Shown: in pieces, positions 345 through 55,725 of the stretch | Numbering within the stretch: the stretch's first letter is position 1 | How the letters are laid out: every line of letters starts with the position of its first letter | Origin: Escherichia phage vB_EcoM-pEB20 | Length of the DNA stretch: 64,000 bases | Reading direction: 5' to 3' (one strand) | Sequence record: OP114733 | Made by a program: the position numbers and the translations under genes | The notes under the pieces: model-generated | Seen by the model: the letters and a program-made list of their open reading frames with translations, nothing else | Database searches by the model: none | Told to the model about the DNA's origin: nothing

Positions 345-1079
345 ATGGAGCTAATCTTTTTAAGTGGCATCAAACGTAGTGGTAAAGACACTACTGCTGA
401 TTACATCAATTCAAACTTTAAATCTGTAAAATATCAATTAGCATATCCAATTAAAGACGCTTTAGCAATTGCCTGGGGTCGTAGGCATGCTGAAAATCCT
501 GATGTATTCACAGAGTTGAAATACGAATACTTTGAAGGCATTGGATACGACCGTGAAACACCATTAAATCTCAATAAGTTGGATGTTATTGAATTATTGG
601 AAGAAGCGCTAATTTATTTGCAAAGTCAATATTTGCCGATTAATAATGTTAAAGTATTATCATCGTTAGAAGGTGGATATTCGTATCTAGATATTAAACC
701 ATATGAAGCCCTGCGTGAAGCTATAAATAATATCAACGACACATGGTCAATCCGCCGTCTTATGCAAGCCCTCGGTACGGATGTTGTCGTTAATTTATTT
801 GACCGTATGTATTGGGTTAAACTTTTTGCATTAAACTATATGGATTATATTGGAAGTGATTTCGATTACTATGTTGTAACCGATACACGCCAAGTCCATG
901 AAATGGAAACCGCTAGAGCGATGGGTGCTACAGTTATTCATGTGGTTCGCTCTGGTACGGAATCCACCGATAAACATATTACAGAAGCTGGGTTGCCTAT
1001 TGAAGAAGGCGATTTAGTTATTACAAACGACGGCTCTTTAGAAGAGCTTTATTCTAAAATTGAAACAATCTTAAGGTAA
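345..1079 (+). CDS. 1: deoxynucleoside monophosphate kinase (gp1)
   Basis: 244 aa; N-terminal P-loop LSGIKRSGKDTTAD; near-identical in motif content to T4 gp1 as recalled. Confidence 0.9.
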   Translation: MELIFLSGIKRSGKDTTADYINSNFKSVKYQLAYPIKDALAIAWGRRHAENPDVFTELKYEYFEGIGYDRETPLNLNKLDVIELLEEALIYLQSQYLPINNVKVLSSLEGGYSYLDIKPYEALREAINNINDTWSIRRLMQALGTDVVVNLFDRMYWVKLFALNYMDYIGSDFDYYVVTDTRQVHEMETARAMGATVIHVVRSGTESTDKHITEAGLPIEEGDLVITNDGSLEELYSKIETILR

Positions 1080-47926: not shown

Positions 47927-48562
47927 ATGAAAACTACTCCTATTACTATCGCTATTGACGCAATTATAAAACAAGCTTCTTCTTTGGCCGCTATGGCCAA
48001 AGTAATTAGTCAAAACCCTGCTCGTTATAATGCTATTCTAGAAACTCTTCGACGCCCTGGACTTAGTAATTATGAAAGCCGGGTAATTATTACAGGTGTT
48101 GGTAAGAATGCTAATATCGCAACTAAAGCTTCCGAGACTTTTGCTTCACTCGGTATCCCGAGTATGTACTTGAACACTGGGCATTATTCTCACGGTGATG
48201 CAGGATTCATTGCGCCTAATGATGTGTTGATTCATATTAGTCGTTCTGGTAAAACTGAAGAAATGATAGGCGTGGCTAAGCATCTTAAAATGATTCGTCC
48301 GAATGTCAAACAGATTCTGTTGCATTGTAACCCAGACATTCCACAAGAAAATGAAGCCCTTTTTGATTACTCTTTCTGTACAGGCATCGCGGTAGAGGTT
48401 GATGAGAATTCTCTGGCTCCGACTATGTCCACTACATTGTTGTTAGCGCTTATCGATACGTTTGCTATCAACCTTTCGTCTGAGCGTGGATTTACCTCTA
48501 ATGACTTCCTTAAGTTCCATCCAGGCGGTGCACTAGGTGCCATGTTACGAGGCGAACAATGA
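47927..48562 (+). CDS. SIS-domain sugar-phosphate isomerase (arabinose-5-phosphate isomerase-like, KdsD/GutQ family)
   Basis: 211 aa; GVGKNANIATKASETFASLG, HGD, LAPTMSTT and HPGGALG motifs align with the KdsD SIS domain; no CBS domains. Confidence 0.8.
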   Translation: MKTTPITIAIDAIIKQASSLAAMAKVISQNPARYNAILETLRRPGLSNYESRVIITGVGKNANIATKASETFASLGIPSMYLNTGHYSHGDAGFIAPNDVLIHISRSGKTEEMIGVAKHLKMIRPNVKQILLHCNPDIPQENEALFDYSFCTGIAVEVDENSLAPTMSTTLLLALIDTFAINLSSERGFTSNDFLKFHPGGALGAMLRGEQ

Positions 48563-48743: not shown

Positions 48744-50429
48744 ATGAAAAAAGCTGTTATTCTTGGTGCTGGACTGGCAACTCGTTTGTATCCAATAACG
48801 CACCATATTCCTAAGGTGCTTGTTAACTATAAACAAGACACTATTCTAAGCAATTTGTATACAATTTATTCTGACCTTGGCGCAGATGAAATTATTGTAG
48901 TAGTTCATTCAAAATTTGCTGAAACTGTTCGAGCTTATTGTGAGCAAGAAGGGTTCAATGTGACTATTCGTACAGTTGATGAAGCGTATGGTTCTGCTTA
49001 TGCTCTTGCTAAATTACACAAAGATTTAGACGGCCATAATGTAATTGTTAACTGGTGTGATATTATTCCTGATTTTGGTTCATGGTCTTGGAATGTTAAC
49101 GCAATCTATGTTAAGGGTGACGAATGTCGATATAATTTCGACGGTGAAAATATCACTAACGTAGGTTCAACAGGTGGTAATGTTGTAGGAATTTATCAGT
49201 TCAAAGACTGGGAATTCTATATGGGTTCTACTGATGAGGAAATTCATGAATACTGCAAAGGACGTGATTTCGTAGAATTCCTTTACGGCAGCGCATTCAA
49301 TAAATCAGAGCTTATGAATCTAATTGATTTAGGTGATATGCCTAAACTTGAAAAAGCTCATGAAGTTCGTGAACTTAATCGTAGTTTTAATGCAGTTGAA
49401 ATTGGTGAAGAAACTGTAACTAAATTCGCATTAACCGAACAGGGTCGAGCTCTTCAGAAAGATGAGATTTCATGGTATCTTAAAGTGAAATCAGATTCAG
49501 TTCCTCAGTTAGTTTCGGTAAATGAAAATAATTTTGAAATGGAACGTATTAAAGGTAAGCCGGCATTTGAATATATTAAATCCAAATCAAGTCTTGCTCG
49601 TCCACAAATTGTTGATGCAATTTTAGATGCACTGAAATTCAGCACAGACACTTATTTTGTAAGTCCTGAAACTGTTCGTCGTGATTTCACTAAAGAGTTC
49701 TATACGAAAGTTATTGATCGTTGTGAAAGCATTCAACCATTGATTGATTCATTTGGTAAAATCACACATGTGAACTACACTAAGATTGGACGTCTGAAGC
49801 CAATGCTGAAACAAGCTTTAGAACACCTTATTCGTTATCATAACCGTTCTCAGGGACAGTACTCTGTTATTCATGGTGACCCGAACTTCAGTAATACTAT
49901 GATTACTGATAACGGCGAAGTCAAGTTTATAGACCCTCGTGGATATTTTGGCGAAACCAAGATTTATGGGCCAAAATTGTATGATGAAGCTAAAGTGCTT
50001 TATGCTGTTTCAGGATATGATGAATTCAATGCTAATCCGACCTGGGGACAGTTTACTATTGATGAAACAACTTGTAATGTGACTATTAACATCAATCCAT
50101 TAGTTTACAAATATGGAAAGATGAGTTCGTTTAACGAGTATCATCATTTGGCTGTAGCAATTATCTGGATTGCATTAGGTGGTTATTTCAAGAATAATCC
50201 ACTTAAAGCGGTAGCCGCATATTATAAAGGTATGGAACTTCTGACTAAGCAATTACGTAACATGGGCCGTGTACTTCAGGACGGCTCTATTAGTTATGAC
50301 GTAGCAGAACCTGTAACGGCTACTCTGATTACAAAAAATCCTGGTAAATGGGTACTAACTGATAAAGAAACCGGTGTTTCCTATCGTCCAATCGGTGGCG
50401 ATATCACTCATCAATGGGAACGAATTTAA
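48744..50429 (+). CDS. bifunctional sugar-1-phosphate nucleotidyltransferase / kinase-like protein
   Basis: 561 aa; N-terminal GAGLATRLYP (RmlA/GlmU-type NTase); C-terminal HGDPNFSN...D.E resembles APH/choline-kinase fold. Confidence 0.7.
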   Translation: MKKAVILGAGLATRLYPITHHIPKVLVNYKQDTILSNLYTIYSDLGADEIIVVVHSKFAETVRAYCEQEGFNVTIRTVDEAYGSAYALAKLHKDLDGHNVIVNWCDIIPDFGSWSWNVNAIYVKGDECRYNFDGENITNVGSTGGNVVGIYQFKDWEFYMGSTDEEIHEYCKGRDFVEFLYGSAFNKSELMNLIDLGDMPKLEKAHEVRELNRSFNAVEIGEETVTKFALTEQGRALQKDEISWYLKVKSDSVPQLVSVNENNFEMERIKGKPAFEYIKSKSSLARPQIVDAILDALKFSTDTYFVSPETVRRDFTKEFYTKVIDRCESIQPLIDSFGKITHVNYTKIGRLKPMLKQALEHLIRYHNRSQGQYSVIHGDPNFSNTMITDNGEVKFIDPRGYFGETKIYGPKLYDEAKVLYAVSGYDEFNANPTWGQFTIDETTCNVTININPLVYKYGKMSSFNEYHHLAVAIIWIALGGYFKNNPLKAVAAYYKGMELLTKQLRNMGRVLQDGSISYDVAEPVTATLITKNPGKWVLTDKETGVSYRPIGGDITHQWERI

Positions 50430-50794
50430 TGCAACTATGCTTCGATGTCGATGATTGTATAACCGAATGGAATAACAATCGTGATTACGCTAATTTTAAA
50501 CCGGACCTAGAAATGGTGGCAGCCATTAATGCCTTGTATGACGCAGGGCATACCATCACGCTTTACACTGCTCGTGGTATGAAGTCTGTAGGTCCTGGAC
50601 GTATTGCTGTAGATATCCTACCAGGTCTGTTACAGAACTTAGCTAACATTGGTTTGAAGTATCATAATTTGCTAACACATAAACCAGTATATGATTGGAT
50701 TATCGACGACAAAGCTATGCGTCCTGACGAATTCAAAGCTCTTATGAATAAAGGCGAATTCGAAACATTTAAATCATATAAACCAAATCTATAA
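50429..50794 (+). CDS. HAD-superfamily phosphatase-like protein
   Basis: About 121 aa; motif I FDVDDCIT; start 50429 (TAATG overlap) or 50414. Confidence 0.6.
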   Translation: MQLCFDVDDCITEWNNNRDYANFKPDLEMVAAINALYDAGHTITLYTARGMKSVGPGRIAVDILPGLLQNLANIGLKYHNLLTHKPVYDWIIDDKAMRPDEFKALMNKGEFETFKSYKPNL

Positions 50795-50840: not shown

Positions 50841-52010
50841 ATGCAAAAAATGAATACTTTTAAAATTGGAACGAATTTCGATTTAGCTCTTCTTGATAAA
50901 ATCGTAGAGCTCAATAAAACTTATCCTAATAGCTTGATAAATGAAGTATACGGCTCTACAAGAGAAATGGCTTTTGTAGCAGCCAGACCTGATTTTAGGC
51001 TTCCTGACGTTGACAAAAAGATGTTAGAAGACTACGTTAAACGTTGTAACGAATTAGGTATTTGCTTTAACTATACACTCAACACGATAAATCCTGGTTC
51101 AAAAAGAGAACTAGTTGAGTGGAAGAAGAAAGCTATTCAGGATTATGTTCAGTATCTTTGGTCAATAGGCGTATGGCGTATTACTATCGCTAACCCTGTT
51201 GTTATGGAAATTGTTCGTGAAGTCAATAAAGACATTGAGATTGAAGTTTCAACAATTCTACATGTCGATGCTGTAACTCAAATCAAATACTTGCATGACC
51301 AGTATAATATCAAAAAGGTCTGCTGTGGAATTCATAAGAACCGTTCAGTTTCTTTCCTGAAGCGTGCAGCAGAGTTTTGCAATAAGAACAATATAATATT
51401 TGAAGTTCTTGTAAATGAGTTCTGTTCTAATGCTGGTAAAGGGTATACAACACATTGTAGCTATCGTGACTCTTGCTATATTTTCCATAGTACTGATGTT
51501 ACAGCTGATGATGCTAAATCCTTAAACGGATATCCTATGCAGCACTGTATTAAAGCTCGTGATACAGACCCATTTAACTGGTTGAGAACTCGTTTTGTTC
51601 GTCCTCAAGATTTGAAACTTTATAATGATATTGGTATCACTCAATTTAAAGTTTCAGGACGTACAGGTAGCACAGACTACATTTTGAAAGTTCTTGAAGC
51701 ATACGCTTCTGAAAAGTTTGAAGGTAATTTGTTAGAACTGTGGAAGCCTTTAGAGACTATTTTCACTCTTGAAAACGAAACTGAGTTTTCACATACGGTA
51801 AATATTGAAACCTCTTTGTTAGACGGCTTTTTAGAAAAAAGGTGGTTCAGACATCCAGATTTCGATTGTGCTAATGAAATCTGCGGGACGACGTGTACAT
51901 ATTGTGAAAGATATTATAAACGTCAGTTATCTAAAAATGGGTTATCAGAAAACTCTATATCTATTATTGATATAACTAACTCTGATGACGCTTTGAGGTA
52001 CCCGGAATGA
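50841..52010 (+). CDS. peptidase U32-family-like protein (putative Fe-S dependent enzyme)
   Basis: 389 aa; EVLVNEFCSNAGKG and QFKVSGRTGSTDYI resemble U32 signature regions; C-terminal Cys cluster C-x4-C-x3-C-x2-C; assignment tentative. Confidence 0.5.
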   Translation: MQKMNTFKIGTNFDLALLDKIVELNKTYPNSLINEVYGSTREMAFVAARPDFRLPDVDKKMLEDYVKRCNELGICFNYTLNTINPGSKRELVEWKKKAIQDYVQYLWSIGVWRITIANPVVMEIVREVNKDIEIEVSTILHVDAVTQIKYLHDQYNIKKVCCGIHKNRSVSFLKRAAEFCNKNNIIFEVLVNEFCSNAGKGYTTHCSYRDSCYIFHSTDVTADDAKSLNGYPMQHCIKARDTDPFNWLRTRFVRPQDLKLYNDIGITQFKVSGRTGSTDYILKVLEAYASEKFEGNLLELWKPLETIFTLENETEFSHTVNIETSLLDGFLEKRWFRHPDFDCANEICGTTCTYCERYYKRQLSKNGLSENSISIIDITNSDDALRYPE

Positions 52011-52246
52011 TTTCTAGAAAAACTTTTAACCACCAACTTAATGAAGAGATTTTGACTATAAAACTGAACACTAACGAACAAATTCTTAAAAAGGCCCTGA
52101 TGGGCCTGTTTGAAACTAAAGCGGCTAAAGTGATTAAAGAACCTGTTCAATTGGAATACTACGCTGATGCATTTCTTCATAGTGTTCTTGGAAGTATCGA
52201 TGCTGAAGCTTTACGTTATATCAACATTGTCAAGAAATTCAAATAA
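52007..52246 (+). CDS. hypothetical protein
   Basis: 79 aa ORF; ATGA overlap. Confidence 0.45.
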   Translation: MISRKTFNHQLNEEILTIKLNTNEQILKKALMGLFETKAAKVIKEPVQLEYYADAFLHSVLGSIDAEALRYINIVKKFK

Positions 52247-52288
52247 GCTTTACGAATTGAGTATATAATAAATTGTATTGAGGTAAAC

Positions 52289-53005
52289 ATGGGAAAACAT
52301 AACACAATGAAATATATCAAAGCCGCAGATTTTCAAACCGCATTTAAAGCAGTCAATCGTGAAATTTTAGAAAACCCGGAATTCGTAACTGATTCTCGTA
52401 TTGGACGTTGTAATGAAATTGGGTCTATGACAGTAGTTGTTGACACTCCATCATCATTCAAAATGACCGACCCACGTATTAACCGCATCTCTTATGAATA
52501 TGCCGAAGACTTCTGGAAGTTTATGATTTCTGGTGGTACCAACGCAGAAGAAGCGTTTAAGGCATATCCTAATGTCGCTAAATTTATTTCTAAACCAAAA
52601 TCAGATGTTTTGCCGGCGAACTTCAACACTTTCTATGGTCCTCGCATTGCGGCCCAATTACCAGCTCTTCTAAAAGAACTTAAAGAGAAGCCTAACTCTC
52701 GAAGAGTTGTGTTCCAAATTCTAGAAAGTTCTGATCAGGCTTTGCTTGATTCAGACGAAACGCTTGAATATCCATGTACTGACTCAGTGACTTATTATAT
52801 TCGTGATGGTAAGCTTTATACCCACTGTCATATGCGTTCTCAGAACTGTGCTGTTGTTATGCAGTTGGATTTTTATCTCCAAGGAAAATTACTTCATTAT
52901 ATCGCTAACGAATGCGGTGTAGAAGTTGGTGATTATACTCATACCATGGTAAGTGCCCATGTGTTTGAACGTGATTTTGATTATGTTAAAGGATTCCTTG
53001 ACTAA
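52289..53005 (+). CDS. 42: thymidylate-synthase-fold pyrimidine hydroxymethylase (gene 42-like dCMP hydroxymethylase)
   Basis: 238 aa; PNSRRVVFQI and catalytic-Cys region YPCTDSVTYYIRDGKLYTHCHMRSQN align to TS/dCMP-HMase motifs; more divergent from T4 gp42 than neighbours. Confidence 0.7.
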   Translation: MGKHNTMKYIKAADFQTAFKAVNREILENPEFVTDSRIGRCNEIGSMTVVVDTPSSFKMTDPRINRISYEYAEDFWKFMISGGTNAEEAFKAYPNVAKFISKPKSDVLPANFNTFYGPRIAAQLPALLKELKEKPNSRRVVFQILESSDQALLDSDETLEYPCTDSVTYYIRDGKLYTHCHMRSQNCAVVMQLDFYLQGKLLHYIANECGVEVGDYTHTMVSAHVFERDFDYVKGFLD

Positions 53006-53904
53006 TGGCTATTTTCCGCGTACCTATCTTGAGTATGCGGTCTTATGAAACTGGACAGTATGCTATCCTTAAGGATGGCAACTTCCAACTTCATTTGCAC
53101 CGTGCTAATCCGGGTGATGTGATTACATATCCACGTAATGCATCTGATATTAAAGAATGCGAACGTCTTTTCCCAGAATTTAAGTTTGTTCCGTTATGGT
53201 ATAAAGATAACGCATATAATACTCGTAAATATTTCTGGTCTGAAAATGAATTTGTAGTTGATTCGTTGATTGCTTATTATGATTGTGATTTTCTCATCAC
53301 GGATATCACTGGATATGATGGTGCTTTTGACGTAGAATTCAATTTCAATATCACTGCAGACCCTAATAAACCACGTTTTTATATTGACGAATTCTTAAAA
53401 ACTGATATGTTGTCGGTTAATCGTTCACTTCAAACTACTGTGTTGAATGAACGTCAAAAAGAAGTGCTGGTTAACGCAGGTGCAGATGGTAATAAGATTA
53501 TCGTAACGCAGAAAGTTATACGTCCTTCCATCATGCAGCGTCTTGTAGGTGATTTGGCTCCTATTCATCTAGATGGTATTTTTCATCCATTTCGAATTAG
53601 TGACCCGTGCTATCGTTTTGAACAAGTGGTTGAATGTGCAATTCAATTAGGCCAACCGCTTTATATAACCGATCCAAATAATAGCTTCGACAGAAATAAG
53701 TATCCTGAAGAAGCACTGATTCGAATTTTTAAACCAACTAAAACTGAGTACTATCAAATTCTTAAAGGACGTCCGAAGATTCAATATTTCGAAAATCCTG
53801 AAGAAGTATTCCATCCAGGTCTTGGTGAGTTCATCTACTTTAACGCTTTAATTTCTTCGCCGTATAATATACCTAAATATGAAGATGTCGTAATCGAGGA
53901 ATAA
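53005..53904 (+). CDS. hypothetical protein at the position of T4 beta-glucosyltransferase
   Basis: 299 aa; no recognised motif; synteny only. Confidence 0.55.
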   Translation: MAIFRVPILSMRSYETGQYAILKDGNFQLHLHRANPGDVITYPRNASDIKECERLFPEFKFVPLWYKDNAYNTRKYFWSENEFVVDSLIAYYDCDFLITDITGYDGAFDVEFNFNITADPNKPRFYIDEFLKTDMLSVNRSLQTTVLNERQKEVLVNAGADGNKIIVTQKVIRPSIMQRLVGDLAPIHLDGIFHPFRISDPCYRFEQVVECAIQLGQPLYITDPNNSFDRNKYPEEALIRIFKPTKTEYYQILKGRPKIQYFENPEEVFHPGLGEFIYFNALISSPYNIPKYEDVVIEE

Positions 53905-53905
53905 A

Positions 53906-54454
53906 ATGGCTAAAATTATTTTAGTAGATGGCCCGGATAATGCTGGTAAAACAACTTTCATTAATGACATAATGGAAATTAGTGAAAGATATGTAAAGAT
54001 TGATTTCCCTAAACGAACAGTTGATGGGCGTTTCGATGTTAAGTCTCGAAATGAAGTTGGCTGTTTCGAAACGATGTTGAATTATTTAGACCCTACTAAG
54101 ATTTATCTGTTAGACCGTGGATATATTAGTAACTGGGTTTATGGACGTATTCGACAAGATGCGGACTCGATTCTTGACGTTTATGAACAGGACTATGTTC
54201 GTCTTTGCCAAAACCATGATGTGTTCACAATTATTTTAACACGTAACGAAATGACTGAAAGTTTTGAAGACGACCTTATTACTTTGTCTTCACTCAGTTT
54301 CAATACAGTCATTTCACATTTTGAAGAGTTTGCAATTCATAACAAAATCCAAACGTATCAATTACTTAATCATGATGGTGCTAACAAAGTTATAGGATTT
54401 AATGCAAGCGAACGTAATTATTTGATTACAGAAATTATCAAATGGGCTCGTTAA
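53906..54454 (+). CDS. P-loop kinase-like protein
   Basis: 182 aa; Walker A VDGPDNAGKTT at N-terminus as in NMP/small-molecule kinases. Confidence 0.6.
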   Translation: MAKIILVDGPDNAGKTTFINDIMEISERYVKIDFPKRTVDGRFDVKSRNEVGCFETMLNYLDPTKIYLLDRGYISNWVYGRIRQDADSILDVYEQDYVRLCQNHDVFTIILTRNEMTESFEDDLITLSSLSFNTVISHFEEFAIHNKIQTYQLLNHDGANKVIGFNASERNYLITEIIKWAR

Positions 54455-54552
54455 GAGCCATTTAAAGTTTTAAATGCTGTATAACCCTTAGTATATAATC
54501 ATCTTATCTTTTAAACATGAGTAAAATATAATGATGCCTATGGAAAAATACA

Positions 54553-55725
54553 ATGTCTGATTTAAAATCTCGTCTGATTAAAGCTTCTACTTCTAAAATG
54601 ACTGCGGACTTGACTAAGTCTAAGCTGTTTAATAATCGCGATGAAGTCCCTACTCGTATTCCGATGTTGAATATTGCATTAGGCGGTGCACTGAATGCCG
54701 GGTTGCAATCAGGCTTAACTATTTTTGCTGCTCCTTCTAAACACTTTAAAACGTTGTTTGGACTGACCATGGTTGCAGCGTATATGAAGAAATATAAAGA
54801 TGCAATCTGTTTGTTTTATGACTCAGAATTCGGTGCTTCAGAATCTTATTTTCGTTCAATGGGTGTTGATTTAGACCGTGTAGTTCATACTCCTATTCAA
54901 TCTGTCGAACAACTTAAAGTTGATATGACTAATCAGCTAGATGCAATCGAACGTGGCGAGAAAGTTATTATCTTTATTGACTCAATCGGTAACACTGCAT
55001 CTAAGAAAGAAACCGAAGATGCTTTGAACGAGAAAGTTGTAGGCGATATGTCTCGTGCTAAGGCACTTAAATCTTTATTTCGTATCGTAACGCCTTATCT
55101 GACTATTAAAGATATTCCGTGCGTTGCAATTAACCACACTGCTATGGAAATTGGTGGATTATATCCTAAAGAGATTATGGGTGGTGGTACAGGTATTCTT
55201 TATTCAGCCAACACCGTATTCTTTATCTCTAAACGTCAGGTTAAAGAAGGTACAGAATTGACCGGTTATGACTTCACGTTGAAAGCAGAAAAATCTCGTA
55301 CAGTTAAAGAGAAATCTACTTTCCCAATCACGGTTAATTTTGATGGCGGTATTGACCCATTCAGTGGCTTGTTAGAAATGGCAACTGAAATTGGTTTTGT
55401 AGTTAAGCCTAAAGCCGGTTGGTATGCTCGTGAATTCCTTGACGAAGAAACAGGTGAAATGATTCGTGAAGAGAAATCGTGGCGTGCTAAAGCTACTGAT
55501 TGTGTAGAATTCTGGGGACCTTTGTTTAAACATAAGCCTTTCCGTGACGCAATTGAAATGAAATATAAGCTAGGCGCTATCTCGTCTATTAAAGAAGTTG
55601 ATGACGCTGTTAACGACCTTATTAATTGCAAAGCAACAACTAAAGTTCCGGTTAAAGCTTCTGATGCTCCATCTGCAGCAGATATTGAAAACGACCTGGA
55701 CGAAATGGAAAATTTTGATGAATAA
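54553..55725 (+). CDS. uvsX: RecA-like recombinase UvsX
   Basis: 390 aa MSDLKSRLIKASTSKMTADL...; Walker A GLTIFAAPSKHFKT; near-identical to T4 UvsX as recalled. Confidence 0.95.
   Translation: MSDLKSRLIKASTSKMTADLTKSKLFNNRDEVPTRIPMLNIALGGALNAGLQSGLTIFAAPSKHFKTLFGLTMVAAYMKKYKDAICLFYDSEFGASESYFRSMGVDLDRVVHTPIQSVEQLKVDMTNQLDAIERGEKVIIFIDSIGNTASKKETEDALNEKVVGDMSRAKALKSLFRIVTPYLTIKDIPCVAINHTAMEIGGLYPKEIMGGGTGILYSANTVFFISKRQVKEGTELTGYDFTLKAEKSRTVKEKSTFPITVNFDGGIDPFSGLLEMATEIGFVVKPKAGWYAREFLDEETGEMIREEKSWRAKATDCVEFWGPLFKHKPFRDAIEMKYKLGAISSIKEVDDAVNDLINCKATTKVPVKASDAPSAADIENDLDEMENFDE

Follow-up and report, generated by a model that had tools for sequence, protein, structure and literature searches.

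The stretch analysed here (the window) comprises 64,000 nucleotides of Escherichia phage vB_EcoM-pEB20 (sequence record OP114733), and the gene under study encodes a small P-loop kinase at positions 53906–54454. The open reading frame (ORF) runs on the + strand from an ATG at 53906 to a TAA at 54452–54454 and encodes 182 amino acids, as read directly from the window. The N-terminus of the product, MAKIILVDGPDNAGKTT, contains a Walker A motif, GPDNAGKTT. The stop codon of the upstream glycosyltransferase gene occupies 53902–53904, so the two genes are 1 nucleotide apart. A terminator scan 3' of the kinase gene found none, and a hairpin spanning the kinase stop codon is not significant (z -1.3).

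The ORF is a genuine gene and not a chance ORF. It shares 97–99% identity with genes of about 150 Mosigvirus (RB69-like) genomes, and over the region 52000–55000 as a whole the identity to Shigella phage JK42 and to about 150 further Mosigvirus genomes is 98%. The window comes from a different Mosigvirus isolate from RB69, JK42 being the closest at 98%. The kinase is present in 343 of 50,697 phage records searched with tblastn, it matches PHROG 761 (E 8.5e-45), and its relatives form 27 clusters in a set of 5.8 billion proteins. A profile search recovers 310 cluster representatives among 1.84 billion proteins, and 16 positions are conserved at 85% or more in 72 diverse members of the family. 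A preliminary description, made from the DNA letters alone, had proposed a second P-loop kinase in addition to a deoxynucleoside monophosphate (dNMP) kinase encoded by gene 1. Both halves of that proposal stand: the 182-residue ORF has its Walker A motif and is conserved across phages, and gene 1 encodes a T4-type dNMP kinase.

The predicted structure of the protein has the three-dimensional fold of thymidylate kinases. An AlphaFold2 model was built from an alignment of 21 sequences (alignment A1; mean predicted local distance difference test score 86.9), and a Foldseek search of BFVD with this model returns one orthologue, followed by Tmk and dNK proteins of viruses. Scores are clearly higher for thymidylate kinases than for sugar kinases, and neither the gluconate nor the shikimate kinase type is the best structural or profile match. 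The protein matches neither the model nor the fold of the T4 gene 1 family DNMK (PF21448). A search of the PDB finds no close relative of the kinase, though the synthase of a near-identical phage is present there. Single-sequence matches in Pfam, NCBIfam and the PDB (AAA_14, MMR_HSR1, RecA, thioredoxin) are below threshold, confined to the P-loop and uninformative; the AAA regulator that the preliminary description had considered as the alternative to a kinase thus finds no footing in them.

The family profile aligns its P-loop plus FPxR and its DRxxxSxxxY segments with the vaccinia and yeast thymidylate kinases, and matches PDB thymidylate kinases at E 0.004–0.06. The Walker A motif GxxxxGK[ST], with an acidic third position, is present as G9-P-D11-N-A-G14-K15-T16. 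The DR motif followed by S/T...Y is also present; D70-R71 occurs in 72 of 72 members, and the residue after it is G, F, S or C and not Y or H. Across these 72 members the near-invariant positions are G9 (100%), D11 (95%), G14 (100%), K15 (100%), K36, D70 and R71 (100%), S75 (90%), N76 (87%), Y79 (97%), R113 (90%), D122 (98%), D123 (91%), F132 and N133 (94%).

A 157-sequence MAFFT alignment that includes Escherichia coli Tmk, at low identity, places D11 opposite Tmk E12, K15 opposite K16, F34-P35-K36 opposite F37-T38-R39, D70-R71 opposite D99-R100, S75-N76-x-x-Y79 opposite S104-T105-x-x-Y108, D123 opposite D157 and F132-N133 opposite F167-N168. This alignment replaced an hhalign comparison with the single E. 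coli Tmk sequence, in which the P-loop alone was aligned. In thymidylate kinases the aligned positions presumably touch a deoxynucleotide at its 3'-OH, its 5'-phosphate, the edge of its base and its 2' position.

The protein also differs from the true dTMP kinases (E. coli Tmk, vaccinia A48R, PDB 5x7j and 2v54). It has 182 residues, compared with about 205–215, and its P-loop and DR motif lie about 30 residues closer together. The Tmk stretch with the arginine that binds thymine O4 (R78) corresponds to a gap throughout the family in this low-identity alignment. Unlike type I dTMP kinases, it has no arginine in the P-loop, where N12 stands (N, G or D in the family). Its lid is acidic, NEMTESFEDD, with [FY]-x-D-D conserved at 91–98%, whereas the lid of E. 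coli Tmk is basic, KRARARGE; a basic lid holds the catalytic arginine in type II enzymes. R113, at the start of the lid, is the sole conserved basic residue nearby and could stand in for the missing catalytic arginine. Since the identity in the alignment is low, we treat these differences as leads. A further difference lies in distribution, which unlike that of dTMP kinases is tied to 5-hydroxy-dCMP synthases (dCMP, deoxycytidine monophosphate). We conclude that the protein combines the thymidylate-kinase fold with an acceptor site of the deoxynucleotide type and falls outside the curated dTMP-kinase family.

The kinase gene is the last gene of a module on the + strand (Table 1). The order is DNA polymerase, a 211-residue ORF, a 561-residue protein, a 126-residue HAD-type protein, a 389-residue U32 protein, a 79-residue ORF, a 238-residue thymidylate-synthase homologue, a 299-residue protein, the 182-residue kinase and uvsX. 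This module corresponds to the gp55–gp45 cluster of RB69 (PMC6024577; PMC13326640). Through its genes, arabinosylated 5-hydroxycytosine takes the place of cytosine in the DNA of these T4-like phages. The 561-residue protein has an N-terminal NTP_transferase domain (Pfam) and weak matches of the APH/fructosamine-kinase type over residues 308–409. The 299-residue protein is annotated as a glycosyltransferase in the syntenic phage NRG-P0074, and is 28% identical (E 5e-9) to gp215 of Rhizobium phage RL38J1.

Table 1. Coordinates of the kinase gene, its module and related features discussed in the text (positions in the window unless a locus or accession is given).
Feature	Coordinates	Strand	Basis
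182-residue P-loop kinase with thymidylate-kinase fold, orthologue of RB69 gp45 and Thanatos TH1_064	53906–54454	+	ORF and orthology
GAGGA, ribosome-binding site of the kinase gene, within the 3' end of the upstream gene	53896–53900	+	Direct reading; 5 nucleotides before the ATG
299-residue glycosyltransferase, RB69 gp46:47 homologue, proposed first arabinosyltransferase	53005–53904	+	PHROG 3891, E 3.4e-156; role, PMC13326640
5-hydroxy-dCMP synthase (thymidylate-synthase homologue), 238 residues	52289–53005	+	Pfam Thymidylat_synt, E 2.3e-15; PDB match
U32-family protein, 389 residues, RB69 gp50 homologue	50841–52010	+	Pfam Peptidase_U32, E 7.4e-11; weak UbiU match; kept in most related loci
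HAD-type phosphatase, 126 residues, AfhF / RB69 gp51 homologue	50414–50794	+	PHROG 1238; role, PMC13326640
561-residue bifunctional sugar-1-phosphate nucleotidyltransferase and sugar kinase, AfhE / RB69 gp52:53 homologue	48744–50429	+	PHROG 4098; PMC13326640
211-residue ORF in the place of arabinose-5-phosphate isomerase (RB69 gp55 homologue)	47927–48562	+	Syntenic NRG-P0074 gene annotated arabinose 5-phosphate isomerase
uvsX recombinase, downstream boundary of the module	54553–55725	+	ORF; annotation of syntenic genomes
Gene 1-type dNMP kinase	345–1079	+	Pfam DNMK PF21448, E 1.4e-96, 323 bits
Kinase of Morganella phage MP1	L012 5995–6525 = NC_031020.1 20500–21030		Intact copy next to uvsX
Kinase fusion gene of L025 (coordinates given) and kinase fusion proteins P0059, P0060, P0065, P0067, P0069, P0074, P0076, P0116	L025 7986–9074		
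TH1_063 of Thanatos-1	L040 5460–6362		Homologue of window 53005–53904

The thymidylate-synthase homologue is about 98% identical to PDB entries 9iqc, 9ir2 and 9iqu. Direct reading of its sequence (...LEYPC...HMRSQNCAVVMQLD...) shows L143E, D169N and N177D, a signature tied to the 5-hydroxylation of dCMP (PMC13326640). The preliminary description had called this enzyme a hydroxymethylase and had placed the kinase gene directly next to it. The PDB identity and the D169N signature identify it as a 5-hydroxy-dCMP synthase instead, and the glycosyltransferase gene stands between the two. Many GenBank records name the synthase gene dCMP hydroxymethylase or thymidylate synthase; in view of the same identity and of D169N, these annotations are outdated. 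In the DNA of RB69 and of phage NP arabinose is joined straight to C5 through an oxygen, without a hydroxymethyl group.

The kinase is inherited together with the synthase and the glycosyltransferase. Of the 50,697 phage records, 343 have the kinase, 348 the glycosyltransferase and 342 the synthase clade, and the host-name distributions of the three are essentially identical. The order synthase, glycosyltransferase, kinase occurs in 14 of 16 Straboviridae loci from IMG/VR. In one of the other two (L016) the kinase gene lies elsewhere in the cluster, and the second (L012) is Morganella phage MP1, which has the kinase without the other two genes. The same order is found in Acinetobacter phage Ac42, in Morganella phage Rgz1, in a metagenomic T4-like contig and in Shewanella phage Thanatos-1, whose DNA is mono-arabinosylated and whose TH1_064 is 43% identical to the window kinase (E 6e-45). 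In Ac42, Rgz1 and Thanatos the kinase gene overlaps the glycosyltransferase gene. The window kinase is assigned to the RB69 gp45-type kinases both by orthology and by its position after the first glycosyltransferase gene, in the interval from the DNA polymerase gene to uvsX, and it co-occurs with the D169N thymidylate-synthase homologue, MP1 being the sole exception found.

A comparable arrangement is present in a Rhizobium phage of the Pootjesviridae, RL38J1, whose 5-hydroxycytosine bears galactosyl/glucosyl groups, galactose being the first sugar. Here the synthase gp216, the glycosyltransferase gp215 and gp214, which is like a thymidylate kinase (TMPK-like), follow in the same order. We considered gp214 as an orthologue of the window kinase; at 43% in hhalign we take it for an analogue of the TMPK-like type that occupies the corresponding place. 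RL38J1 gp219 is annotated as a dNMP kinase, which disproves the idea that Pootjesviridae have no dNMP kinase other than the TMPK-like one; the BLASTP comparison of gp219 with gene 1 is insignificant.

MP1 encodes an intact kinase between its DNA polymerase and uvsX genes, with all 37 residues that are invariant in the close family. A tblastn search of the whole MP1 genome finds no synthase, glycosyltransferase, AfhE-like, HAD or U32 gene. All five are present in its sister phage Rgz1. The kinases of the two phages are 59% identical and their UvsX proteins 93% identical, from which it follows that the kinase locus has been exchanged. Relaxed selection in MP1 was considered and set aside: the lineage-specific ratio of non-synonymous to synonymous substitution rates cannot be read, as synonymous sites are saturated at 59% identity, and the invariant residues are all kept. 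MP1 still encodes Alc-like, DenB-like and dCTPase/dUTPase-like proteins. The paper describing MP1 contains nothing on DNA modification or DNA base composition.

In at least eight cluster representatives the kinase is fused to a C-terminal domain of 150 residues, whose profile matches the HhH-GPD mismatch glycosylase domain of the MBD4 type (PDB MBD4, E 1e-20). No homologue of this domain is found within the window. In a distant metagenomic phage (L025) the fusion gene directly follows a D169N/N177D synthase gene and precedes genes for a flavin mononucleotide reductase, a SIS isomerase and an AfhE-like protein; no GT-B gene is visible before the end of the contig. Because the L025 fusion sits in such a cluster, the kinase family is tied to 5-hydroxycytosine systems far beyond the T4-like phages. 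The kinase–glycosylase fusion could serve the repair of deaminated 5-hydroxycytosine, or a step at the level of DNA. A more distant relative, 33% identical over the N-terminal half, lies beside a MazG-type pyrophosphatase on a contig of a PolA-type phage (L018, 6001–8589), and about 1.2 kb downstream of it is a thymidylate-synthase homologue with D169/D177, the hydroxymethylase type. This agrees with a wider pattern in which such kinases accompany enzymes for the synthesis of modified pyrimidines, and looks like a parallel pairing of a kinase and a thymidylate-synthase homologue for another modified cytosine.

The analysis establishes the ORF and its fold, shows that the catalytic and dNMP-site motifs are conserved and the genes tightly packed, and finds the kinase inherited together with the synthase and the first glycosyltransferase. 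With these results as the starting point we tentatively favour, at a rough probability of 0.45, the reading that the protein is an active ATP-dependent dNMP kinase with a thymidylate-kinase fold and a fixed part of the module, the most likely acceptor being a C5-modified dCMP. The synthase, two genes upstream, would make 5-hydroxy-dCMP, its known product (PMC13326640), and the kinase would convert this to 5-hydroxy-dCDP, after which the modified base would reach DNA by way of the host's nucleoside-diphosphate kinase and the phage polymerase. The kinase would work beside the gene 1 dNMP kinase with partial overlap. The preliminary description had offered a kinase for a modified nucleotide as one option, with hydroxymethyl-dCMP in mind; as far as sequence can tell, fold and motifs agree with this option, and so does the almost perfect co-inheritance of kinase and synthase, while the nucleotide would be 5-hydroxy-dCMP and not hydroxymethyl-dCMP.

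Several points weigh against this reading. In vitro, the gene 1 orthologue of RB69 (gp159) phosphorylates 5-hydroxy-dCMP to the diphosphate, and when the synthase and gp159 alone are co-expressed 5-hydroxy-deoxycytidine enters E. coli plasmid DNA (PMC13326640). As these two proteins suffice, a kinase of the gp45 type is dispensable for the 5-hydroxy-dCMP step in that assay. A gene 1-type and a TMPK-like kinase coexist in RL38J1 too (gp219 and gp214), and the persistent coexistence of two kinases argues for a distinct role rather than plain redundancy. PF02223 (Pfam) gives no match to the kinase at E ≤ 1, and against TIGR00041 (dTMP kinase) it scores 15.9 bits, compared with a cut-off of 83.25, in the P-loop region alone. 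MP1 has the kinase and none of the modification genes. Finally, it is from genomic context that we infer the identity of the phosphate acceptor; that the kinase is not simply redundant is likewise an inference.

MP1 is also the main support for a different explanation, that the protein is a general pyrimidine dNMP kinase acting on dTMP, dUMP or dCMP and merely travelling with the module. The thymidylate-kinase fold and motifs are compatible with this, and many records carry the annotation 'thymidylate kinase'. Apart from MP1, however, the kinase stands in a near one-to-one relation to the synthase and the glycosyltransferase, and no T4/T2/T6-type (Tequatrovirus) phages are apparent among the matches listed and the host-name counts. 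The scores lie far below the curated dTMP-kinase cut-offs, and the alignment offers nothing that corresponds to the arginine with which E. coli Tmk binds thymine. In T4 biochemistry, dTMP is already served by the gene 1 kinase and by host Tmk. We consider a general kinase unlikely, though worth keeping in view. Nor do we think it likely that the protein is a kinase for a glycosylated mononucleotide, in which case the first arabinose would be added to 5-hydroxy-dCMP before replication and the gene 1 kinase could not accept the bulky product; the first sugar would then reach DNA by way of the polymerase. This would account for the two coexisting dNMP kinases. It would also agree with the packing of the kinase gene against the first glycosyltransferase gene, 1 nucleotide away here and overlapping in Ac42, Rgz1 and Thanatos, and with the order of synthase, glycosyltransferase and TMPK-like kinase in RL38J1, where the first sugar is galactose. 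The gap at the thymine-O4 arginine stretch and the acidic lid permit a different, larger pocket but are no proof of one. To our knowledge, the known phage DNA glycosylations, by the T4 alpha- and beta-glucosyltransferases, all act on DNA, which goes against this explanation. MP1 keeps the kinase without any glycosyltransferase, the L016 kinase lies apart from the glycosyltransferase, and some metagenomic copies are fused to the MBD4-type glycosylase domain and not placed beside a GT-B gene. The published experiments can be read both ways: single glycosyltransferases with UDP-arabinose do not arabinosylate DNA containing 5-hydroxycytosine and the authors say that they cannot distinguish addition of the first sugar to the mononucleotide from its addition to DNA, but the third arabinose is added on DNA (PMC13326640). 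In the Thanatos paper TH1_063, the homologue of the glycosyltransferase, acts in vitro as a UDP-xylose pyrophosphorylase; this activity does not fit a simple role as DNA glycosyltransferase and adds to the uncertainty about the first sugar transfer. A wider version, in which the synthase, glycosyltransferase and kinase form a pre-replicative pathway and the polymerase incorporates an already glycosylated dCTP, is a little more doubtful still. If it were true, it would be the first case in which DNA glycosylation proceeds through the nucleotide pool rather than on the polymer, and the presence of two dNMP kinases would be explained.

The remaining explanations are much less probable. By analogy with the 5-hydroxymethyluracil DNA kinases (5-HMUDK), the protein might be directed at the base or at DNA, with the 5-hydroxyl group of 5-hydroxycytosine as the site of phosphorylation. 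P-loop kinases next to thymidylate-synthase homologues prime thymidine hypermodification in phages M6, ViI and SP10 (PMC8989533), the fusions in at least eight representatives join the kinase to a DNA-binding MBD4-type HhH-GPD domain, and the first glycosylation on DNA failed without other factors (PMC13326640). The likeness to M6 gp54 is confined to the N-terminal P-loop half, however, and the two belong to different PHROGs; the residues that hold the sugar and 5'-phosphate of a free dNMP are conserved; and on chemical reasoning an O-glycoside on the 5-hydroxyl requires no phosphate leaving group. We hold a DNA-directed kinase to be very improbable. The same can be said of a non-catalytic or regulatory P-loop protein, for instance a scaffold of the dNTP-synthesising complex. 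The apparent redundancy with gene 1, the atypical acidic lid and the lack of a P-loop arginine would suit such a protein, but K15 and T16 of the Walker A motif, D70-R71 and R113 are 90–100% conserved in the 72 members, as in an active phosphotransferase. Least probable of all is the sugar or sugar-acid kinase that the preliminary description had suggested, which would feed arabinose activation. Thymidylate kinases score clearly higher and the dNMP-site residues are conserved. The sugar branch leads from ribulose-5-phosphate through arabinose-5-phosphate, arabinose-1,5-bisphosphate and arabinose-1-phosphate to UDP-arabinofuranose, a route served by an isomerase, a bifunctional enzyme of the AfhE type and a HAD phosphatase, and the step from arabinose-5-phosphate to the bisphosphate is assigned to the C-terminal domain of AfhE (PMC13326640), which here belongs to the 561-residue protein. 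As these enzymes cover the route, no sugar kinase is missing from the module.

Two further observations concern neighbouring genes. In NRG-P0074 a homing-endonuclease gene (L001, 4692–5453) lies between the AfhE-like and HAD phosphatase genes. The window is without this insertion and the two genes overlap (about 50414–50429); the modules of Ac42 and RL38J1 also contain homing endonucleases. Rgz1 has a chorismate mutase gene (CM_2 in Pfam, E 5.9e-12) between its U32 gene and its synthase gene (L020 16667–17827 and 18023–18400; the U32 gene of the window is at 50841–52010, + strand). Chorismate mutase makes prephenate, and the U32 family, as we understand it, includes the O2-independent, prephenate-dependent hydroxylases UbiU/V, TrhP (5-hydroxyuridine in tRNA) and RlhA (5-hydroxycytidine in rRNA). 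The pairing suggests an anaerobic route to 5-hydroxycytosine alongside the O2- and flavin-dependent synthase. The RB69 homologue of the U32 protein is called just a 'sugar or heterocycle reductase' (PMC13326640).

As a feature the kinase is already known: hundreds of genomes carry the annotation and two papers list it. RB69 gp45 (RB69p045, NP_861735.1), DLP3 gp78, Thanatos TH1_064 and Ac42p075 are the same protein as the window kinase without substantive difference. These papers describe gp45 as the thymidylate-kinase homologue or nucleotide kinase of the arabinosyl-cytosine cluster (PMC13326640; PMC8056088). RB69p045 is listed as 'Nucleotide kinase' (PMC13326640), and the arabinosylated nucleotide is one for which it 'presumably participates in the synthesis' (PMC8056088). 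The T4 gene 1 kinase (PF21448) resembles it as a phage P-loop kinase for dNMPs in the same genome, and the gene 1 kinase is the proven 5-hydroxy-dCMP kinase of RB69. The 5-HMUDK (M6 gp54, ViI gp67) are likewise small P-loop kinases near a thymidylate-synthase homologue in a base-hypermodification cluster, sometimes fused to other modification domains, but their target is the base in DNA and their partners are aGPT-Pplase transferases. Membership of the window kinase in that group was rejected: hhalign gives 81% over 82 N-terminal columns with the DR motif unaligned, and M6 gp54 belongs to PHROG 800 and not 761. Pfam and PHROG scans find no aGPT-Pplase gene in the window cluster. New in the present analysis are a set of motifs for the whole family, counts for the co-inheritance, the fusions to an MBD4-type domain, MP1 as the exception and the persistence of both kinases in two distant phage families.

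RB69, other Mosigviruses and the T4-like phages of Acinetobacter and Serratia serve phage therapy and studies of defence systems, and the arabinosylated 5-hydroxycytosine of these phages was correctly identified just in 2025–2026. The substrate of the kinase would decide whether the first glycosylation occurs on nucleotides or on DNA, and would explain why two dNMP kinases coexist in these phages. Knowledge of this substrate would also supply an enzyme for making C5-modified dCTP analogues.

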